Source: Polyangiaceae bacterium
Lineage (GTDB): Bacteria; Myxococcota_A; Polyangia; Polyangiales; Polyangiaceae
Direction of reading: 5' to 3'
NCBI GenBank assembly: GCA_025453595.1
Contig: JALOQB010000215.1
Span: forward strand, 1-13,695
Length of the DNA: 13,695 bases
Shown here in pieces: positions 3,121 through 3,282 of this stretch. How positions within the stretch are numbered: the stretch's first letter is position 1; every line of letters starts with the position of its first letter. The notes under the pieces are model-generated. The model did not search any database and had not been told where the DNA came from. It saw only the letters and a program-made list of their open reading frames with translations. A program made the position numbers and the translations under genes.

Positions 3121-3282
3121 TCAATCCATGGGCTCGAAGTCGGCCTTGGTGGCGCCGCACTCGGGGCAGTACCAGTCGTCCGGGAGCTGCTCGAAGGGGG
3201 TGCCCGGGGCGACCCCCGAGGCCGGGTCACCCTCGGCTGGATCGTAGACGTGGCTGCAGACGGTACATCGGTACTTGCGCAT
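3121..3282 (-). CDS. Rubredoxin (53 aa)
   Basis: The - strand ORF from ATG at 3280-3282 to TGA at 3121-3123 translates to [53 protein letters not shown]. The CxxC...CPxCG iron-binding pairs and the DDW-CP-CG core are diagnostic of rubredoxin. At 54 codons it falls below the ORF-track cutoff. A TATACT hexamer lies 6-11 nt upstream of the ATG with no obvious SD. Confidence 0.85.

Follow-up and report, generated by a model that had tools for sequence, protein, structure and literature searches.

A real, intact and native gene for an ordinary rubredoxin is located on the minus strand of the window, which is the whole 13,695-nt stretch of Polyangiaceae DNA that was analyzed. The gene is already annotated and is not new. 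Among the explanations that were weighed, a stand-alone, single-domain rubredoxin is the best overall and very probably the correct one for this open reading frame (ORF).

The rubredoxin gene and its product

The ORF runs for 53 codons from ATG to TGA (stop at 3123..3121) and exists exactly where a first, sequence-only reading had placed it, between a gene for a GNAT-like protein (TGA at 3315..3313) and the ATG (3064) of a redoxin lipoprotein gene (Table 1). In the mechanical ORF list it is a 53-aa ATG ORF, whose ATG is the earliest ATG, GTG or TTG past the upstream in-frame stop; the in-frame residues upstream of it are DPGILRP. The GC3 of the gene is 0.87, similar to that of the adjoining genes. 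Scanned in full for Rfam families and tRNA genes, the window gave no matches.

Table 1. Coordinates of the rubredoxin gene, of elements within and around it, and of its two neighbours
Feature	Position	Strand	Basis
Rubredoxin coding sequence	3121..3282	-	Translation, PF00301, NF045768, identity to MCU0657721.1
First metal-binding knuckle, C6-T-V-C9-S10-H11	3250..3267	-	Translates to CTVCSH
Second metal-binding knuckle, C39-P-E-C42-G43, canonical CPxCG	3154..3168	-	Translates to CPECG
Extended -10-like element TGgTATACT, candidate promoter, 7 nt before ATG	3290..3298	-	Sequence; putative role
Gap from GNAT-like stop to rubredoxin ATG, 30 nt, without Shine-Dalgarno	3283..3312	-	Sequence
Gap from rubredoxin stop to redoxin ATG, 56 nt, without terminator-like site	3065..3120	-	Terminator scan
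Upstream neighbour, 385-aa GNAT-like protein, function unassigned	3313..4470	-	Weak Acetyltransf_1 match
Downstream neighbour, redoxin/AhpC-TSA lipoprotein gene without stop codon	2351..3064	-	PF08534 and lipobox

The gene had been called unlisted by the sequence-only reading; it was indeed missed by the length cut-off of that first stage, but it was already annotated in NCBI and JGI. In NCBI, the identical sequence carries the accession MCU0657721.1 and the title "MAG: rubredoxin [Polyangiaceae bacterium]", on this same contig. Bases 1-9827 of the window are 100% identical to a JGI metagenome contig, and bases 1848-8954 differ from a Logan assembly at one site, a synonymous difference at 3229 inside the rubredoxin gene, which was called with a Pfam Rubredoxin match in both assemblies. 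The frame is intact in the two other assemblies of the same sequence (L001, L002) and also in six contigs of the nearest relative lineage. Relative to that lineage, four changes, all non-synonymous, were counted versus 1-2 synonymous ones (pN/pS 0.56-1.1), counts that are too small to mean much; all four lie at positions that vary within the family.

Family membership was determined by using the Pfam and NCBIfam models. The product matched PF00301, the Pfam Rubredoxin family proposed for it beforehand, with 85 bits (cut-off 23 bits; E 3.5e-24) over profile positions 1-47 of 47, and matched the rubredoxin equivalog NF045768 with 100.7 bits (cut-off 90 bits) over positions 1-53 of 54. The Cys ligands C6, C9, C39 and C42 are all present as a C-x2-C and a C-P-x-C motif roughly 29 residues apart, and are invariant in an alignment of 32 homologues (A1) together with R5, H11, Y13, D14, P15, G18, D19, P20, G27, T28, F30, W37, P40 and G43. 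A1 also shows conservation of the aromatic core and of the acidic surface that mark redox rubredoxins. In all, 399 homologues were found, and the best 120 (69-92% identity) were examined.

A sequence search of solved structures gave 9zdi as the best match (E 5.3e-25); the best matches were all rubredoxins (E 5e-25 to 1e-18), with dozens more behind them. An AlphaFold2 model built on 32 homologues (pLDDT 95.2) shows the rubredoxin fold, in which two metal-binding loops accompany a small three-stranded sheet. Foldseek matched it to 1t9o, the Clostridium pasteurianum rubredoxin (TM 0.98, rmsd 0.5 Å), the top matches again all being rubredoxins, and comparison with the rubredoxins of C. pasteurianum, Desulfovibrio gigas, Desulfovibrio vulgaris and Pyrococcus furiosus gave TM 0.94-0.98 and rmsd 0.5-0.7 Å. 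The protein is 53-65% identical to classical rubredoxins (C. pasteurianum 1iro/4rxn, D. vulgaris 1rdv/7rxn, D. gigas 1rdg, P. furiosus 1brf, and 9zdi), with which it shares a length of 52-54 aa, the C-x2-C...C-P-x-C-G site and an aromatic core of Y4, Y13, F30, W37 and F49. It differs from them in having Ser rather than Gly after the second Cys, followed by His rather than Tyr, and its host is an aerobic, 69% GC Polyangiaceae bacterium, whereas the classical hosts are anaerobes.

The two knuckles would hold one iron atom through C6, C9, C39 and C42, cycling between Fe(III) and Fe(II), and the protein would act in the cytoplasm as a one-electron carrier that is reduced by a flavoprotein reductase and passes the electron on to an acceptor enzyme. 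A domain search found neither a reductase nor an acceptor gene within the window, and both donor and acceptor are presumably encoded outside it.

Three other identities were weighed for the ORF. Rubredoxins of aerobic bacteria often serve AlkB, and departures from CXXCG described in AlkG1-type proteins (PMC8918992) were counted in favor of an alkane-hydroxylase-associated type (AlkG1 or AlkG2) that would feed electrons to AlkB. The AlkG1 hallmark, however, is an Arg insertion after the second CXXCG (PMC3604635), and no Arg is inserted after the second knuckle here relative to classical rubredoxins; nor did the window, or any of the related loci that were examined, contain alkB or a rubredoxin reductase gene. 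The AlkG1-type assignment was rejected on the absence of both the Arg insertion and alkB. The alkane-type rubredoxins of Pseudomonas aeruginosa and Mycobacterium tuberculosis matched at 60.5 and 58.4 bits versus 77-89 bits for classical ones. These proteins (RubA2, 2v3b; RubB, 7a9a) have the same fold as the window protein (TM 0.92-0.94), likewise come from aerobic bacteria and are reduced by an NAD(P)H-dependent flavoprotein; they are 48-49% identical to it, and the window gene is without an alkB or alkT neighbour. An alkane-hydroxylase role is very improbable.

It is even harder to credit that the protein is a zinc ribbon or a structural metal-binding peptide instead of a redox-active iron protein. 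Rubredoxins can bind zinc in another expression host (e.g., PDB 1irn), and weak matches to Zn_ribbon_8 and FmdB-type zinc ribbons were obtained, but these fell far under their cut-offs (18 vs 34.4 bits; 16.2 vs 31.3 bits) where the rubredoxin models scored far above theirs, and the aromatic core and acidic surface also speak against that assignment. Long spurious ORFs are common in the window at 69% GC, which is what could be said for a chance open frame in GC-rich DNA; this explanation, almost certainly false, is refuted by the full-length PF00301 match (E 3.5e-24), the 399 homologues, the intact frame in other assemblies and the predicted fold.

The first knuckle reads CTVCS and the second CPECG, such that Gly follows only the second Cys pair. 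Gly after each pair is not a true requirement of the rubredoxin family, because sequences with another residue match Pfam Rubredoxin or align at 55-83% identity. Among the best 120 of the 399 homologues, position 10 was occupied by S (43), E (22), D (20), N (15), G (11), Q (3), A (3), T (2) and M (1), that is, by a residue other than Gly in 109 of 120, and Gly followed the second pair (CPxCG) in 119 of 120. A broader set of 82 rubredoxins, taken from the genomes of 80 species in many phyla, had G as residue 10 in 56 cases and S, N, D or E in 26. Within A1, position 10 varies and His11 is invariant. The conservation of CxxCS in orthologs, which the sequence-only reading had raised, can thus be answered: the departure from Gly is real and clade-wide, but Ser itself is not conserved. 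A residue other than Gly at position 10 is the norm in this clade and common across the family, and Ser10/His11 in place of Gly10/Tyr11 is probably a variant typical of the lineage, one that may alter the redox potential but would leave the identity of the protein unchanged.

Engineered Gly10 mutants of C. pasteurianum rubredoxin (1b13, G10A; 1b2o, G10V/G43A) place a side chain where Ser10 is and keep the fold, and the model superposes on them with TM 0.96-0.97. Those mutants were made in the laboratory in a Gly-Tyr background, whereas here the non-Gly residue is natural in a large clade with a conserved His11. In the mutants, the potential was reportedly shifted modestly, by tens of mV, and the 9-10 peptide bond is said to be able to flip. 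A literature search on the conserved Gly10 and Gly43 gave nothing directly usable.

Gene neighbourhood in related genomes

The order GNAT-like protein, rubredoxin, redoxin and convergent membrane protein was found only in the window and in the nearest relative lineage (L083-L088), in which the rubredoxin is 92% identical and the neighbours are 98% identical. DNA similarity to L083 and L084 (98% identical) stops at window base 4560, inside the gap (4471-4594) between the GNAT-like gene and the gene of a major vault protein (MVP) homologue, and this break marks a very recent rearrangement. Upstream in L083 and L084, a sigma-54 activator gene and a 121-aa gene replace the block of MVP, RimK-like and acyl-CoA dehydrogenase genes. 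The rubredoxin had been described beforehand as belonging to a cluster divergent from MVP; the comparison does not support this description, as MVP is not a neighbour in the nearest relative and the gene order is not conserved. Across diverged genomes, no conserved MVP/GNAT-like/rubredoxin/redoxin order was found.

Among the intermediate GNAT-like relatives that were looked up, only L169 (GNAT-like protein 83% identical) keeps MVP and rubredoxin nearby; its MVP and GNAT-like genes are still divergent, and its rubredoxin gene lies about 2 kb further on in a different arrangement. Relatives at 77% and 70% identity sit in unrelated contexts with no rubredoxin, redoxin or MVP gene nearby. A metagenome scan using the GNAT-like alignment gave 80 loci (57-64% identity), none of which (0/80) carries rubredoxin, redoxin, MVP or the membrane protein nearby. 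A scan of species-representative genomes using the rubredoxin alignment also gave 80 loci, many of them from other phyla because one search pattern was generic, and no other window gene was found at these loci except for two weak redoxin matches in unrelated phyla. Other rubredoxin orthologues adjoin unrelated genes (ScdA/hemerythrin, HlyIII, bestrophin and SpoIID). By these comparisons, the rubredoxin moves as a solo gene, and it was brought close to MVP by chance when the locus was rearranged. A functional cluster finds no support.

In two sister lineages, L169 (5362-6820) and L004 (6716-8159), the latter a Polyangiaceae MAG, the rubredoxin gene is divergently paired, at a distance of 40 nt, with a gene for a 417-aa protein. 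This protein is similar to the N-terminal part of sarcosine oxidase alpha and has a 2Fe-2S (Fer2_4) domain and an FAD-binding domain. This flavoprotein, which is absent from the window, is the best candidate reductase and the only recurring candidate partner. On the other side, a 211-aa gene and a PrsW protease gene come next after the L169 rubredoxin. Direct electron transfer from the rubredoxin to the redoxin is unlikely, because the redoxin lipoprotein would be exported from the cytoplasm. An inverted repeat, GAGGCTA-N12-TAGCCTC, in the gap of L169 and L004 overlaps a -10-like element and could be an operator.

The 385-aa GNAT-like protein, for which the start used by the gene callers was taken, gave a marginal Acetyltransf_1 match (E 2.5e-4) and no match in NCBIfam. 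It has more than 6,000 homologues, which are called "hypothetical protein" and placed in Myxococcales/Polyangiaceae wherever sources name them, in varying genomic contexts. The product of the MVP gene (4595-7324, plus strand) is a bacterial homologue, 909 aa long, of the eukaryotic major vault protein (MVP_shoulder E 5.9e-10, Vault_3, Vault_4). Just downstream of the MVP gene and convergent with it is a RimK-type ATP-grasp gene (7338-8309, minus strand); both genes are conserved in L169.

Start of rubredoxin transcription and translation

The hexamer TATACT is present upstream of the rubredoxin ATG at 3295..3290. The sequence-only reading had noticed it and placed it 6-11 nt upstream; it actually occupies -13 to -8 relative to the A of the ATG, leaving a spacer of 7 nt. 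With the TGg in front of it, it reads as an extended -10, TGgTATACT. TATACT occurs once in the window versus 0.12 times expected. No GGAGG-like Shine-Dalgarno (SD) sequence was found in the 30-nt gap upstream of the ATG, which bears out what had been said of it. A TGnTAnnnT element thus stands 7 nt before a start codon that has no SD, inside the 6-8 nt range looked for in a leaderless transcript from an extended -10 promoter. A two-hexamer sigma-70 scan around the gene found no promoter and no -35 match, as is expected of extended -10 promoters, which do without a -35. Folding of the RNA of the 5' region (z -0.9) was no better than that of shuffled sequence.

The element recurs in relatives. 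The window has TGgTATACT and L083 TGgTATGCT, in both cases followed by 7 nt and the ATG, with the 3' end of the GNAT-like gene further upstream; L169 has TGcTAGCCT and L004 TGgTAGCCT at the same 7-nt spacing from the ATG, with the start of the divergent oxidoreductase gene further upstream. The arrangement TG-n-TA-nn-CT-N7-ATG is thus invariant in these four lineages, which are fairly close relatives, and the sequence beyond it is unrelated between the two pairs. More distant rubredoxin orthologues have ordinary GGAG-type ribosome-binding sites and leaders.

In bacterial promoters, a -10 element that ends 7 nt before an ATG puts the transcription start at or beside the A, and the mRNA would therefore be leaderless. 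A scan of the surroundings of the gene, including 3065..3120, found no terminator-like site, and because none lies between the two genes, rubredoxin and redoxin are probably co-transcribed. That the rubredoxin gene has its own extended -10 promoter and gives a leaderless mRNA, which would probably continue into the redoxin gene, is a tentative reading that could well be right. Leaderless genes with extended -10 promoters are established and are known especially from Actinobacteria and Deinococcus. The rubredoxin gene, a candidate member of this class, is like these in its TGn-extended -10 about 7 nt upstream and its lack of both an SD and a -35. For myxobacteria, a literature search on leaderless transcripts yielded no directly usable result.

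Another possible, if rather doubtful, reading is that the rubredoxin has no promoter of its own and is the middle gene of a GNAT-like/rubredoxin/redoxin operon, translated from an SD-less internal ATG, with TATACT being a chance AT-rich patch. The three genes share a strand, and the gaps that separate them measure just 30 and 56 nt and contain no terminator-like site; a clear SD is also missing from the redoxin, GNAT-like and RimK-like genes, and SD-independent initiation thus seems usual here; and the looser pattern TGNTANNNT shows no enrichment in the window (4 occurrences vs 2.2 expected). Against the operon stands the TGnTAGCCT-N7-ATG of L169 and L004, which lies in a 40-nt divergent gap where, because there is no same-strand gene upstream, the rubredoxin must be transcribed from the motif or from inside the neighbouring gene. 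The TG, TA and CT and the N7 spacing have also outlasted a rearrangement that replaced everything upstream. A promoter belonging to the rubredoxin and read-through from the GNAT-like gene could both hold at once. The conservation of the motif in four lineages is consistent with the leaderless or internally promoted transcript that the sequence-only reading had put forward as possible.

Similar elements were observed before other genes of the window that have no nearby SD: TGCTACCGT at 4553-4561 (plus strand), 33 nt before the MVP ATG (4595); TGCTACGGT at 8321-8329 (minus strand), 11 nt before the RimK-like ATG (8309); and TAGCAT at 10672-10677 (minus strand), 6 nt before the GTG (10665) of an AraC/DJ-1 regulator gene. 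Transcripts of this organism may often have a short leader or none.

A redoxin gene without a stop codon

The redoxin was identified by a PF08534 match (E 6.7e-23) and a lipobox, LAGC, after an N-terminal hydrophobic stretch. Of its homologues, 117 of 120 end 0-5 residues after GCxVKY. In the window, the frame continues after ...AYGCGVKYM with TTA and is then open to window base 1 (junction at 2348-2360), and the corresponding frame in L083 is open for 889 codons. On the other strand, this TTA reads as the TAA (2351-2353) with which the convergent membrane-protein gene stops. So long an open frame is expected, because its first codon position pairs with the third position of a gene with GC3 0.95 and stops cannot arise. 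On contigs that extend beyond the redoxin gene, gene callers leave it out.

The missing stop is not an assembly error, because the same junction is present in seven assembled contigs that represent three sequence variants. The nearest normal orthologue (L180) reads AAG TAC CTG TAG ggg where the window reads AAG TAC ATG T TAG GG, indicating that one inserted T (ATG-T-TAG) moved the TAG to the +1 frame and that its complement created the TAA of the convergent gene. With 14 synonymous versus 5 non-synonymous changes (pN/pS 0.12), the redoxin gene is still under purifying selection.

The convergent membrane-protein gene (1-2353, plus strand) encodes many transmembrane segments and weakly matches polyamine aminopropyltransferase; the start of the window truncates it, and its L083 homologue is 787 aa long. 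The C-terminal tails of the membrane protein differ in three close variants (DERSAP, DEPSTP and DEPSVS), which all end at the same TAA.

The annotated genes of the window, with 4,202 codons in all, never use TTA, and they use ATA and AGA once each and CTA twice. The genes of the window have GC3 values of 0.84-0.95, and the only in-frame TTA seen is the one at the missing stop of the redoxin. Translation of the redoxin could end by a stall at a hungry UUA codon with termination at the overlapping +1 UAG, by non-stop rescue, or by read-through. RNA folding of the 3' junction was no better than that of shuffled sequence. A wider joint reading is improbable as a whole: rubredoxin and redoxin would form a leaderless unit, in which the redoxin is still made at normal length through a UUA stall followed by +1 UAG termination or ribosome rescue, and the Ser10/His11 clade might have a distinct, perhaps pH-dependent redox potential.

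The sequence-only reading identified the gene correctly but made too much of its importance. Because of its length cut-off, the first-stage ORF list leaves out real small genes for which standard pipelines already supply annotation. The presence in this Polyangiaceae bacterium of a soluble carrier of single electrons, with partners that would be encoded elsewhere in its genome, matters little in itself. A stopless redoxin gene that is under purifying selection is more curious than the rubredoxin, and the conserved arrangement of extended -10, N7 and ATG would predict leaderless expression in a myxobacterial lineage.
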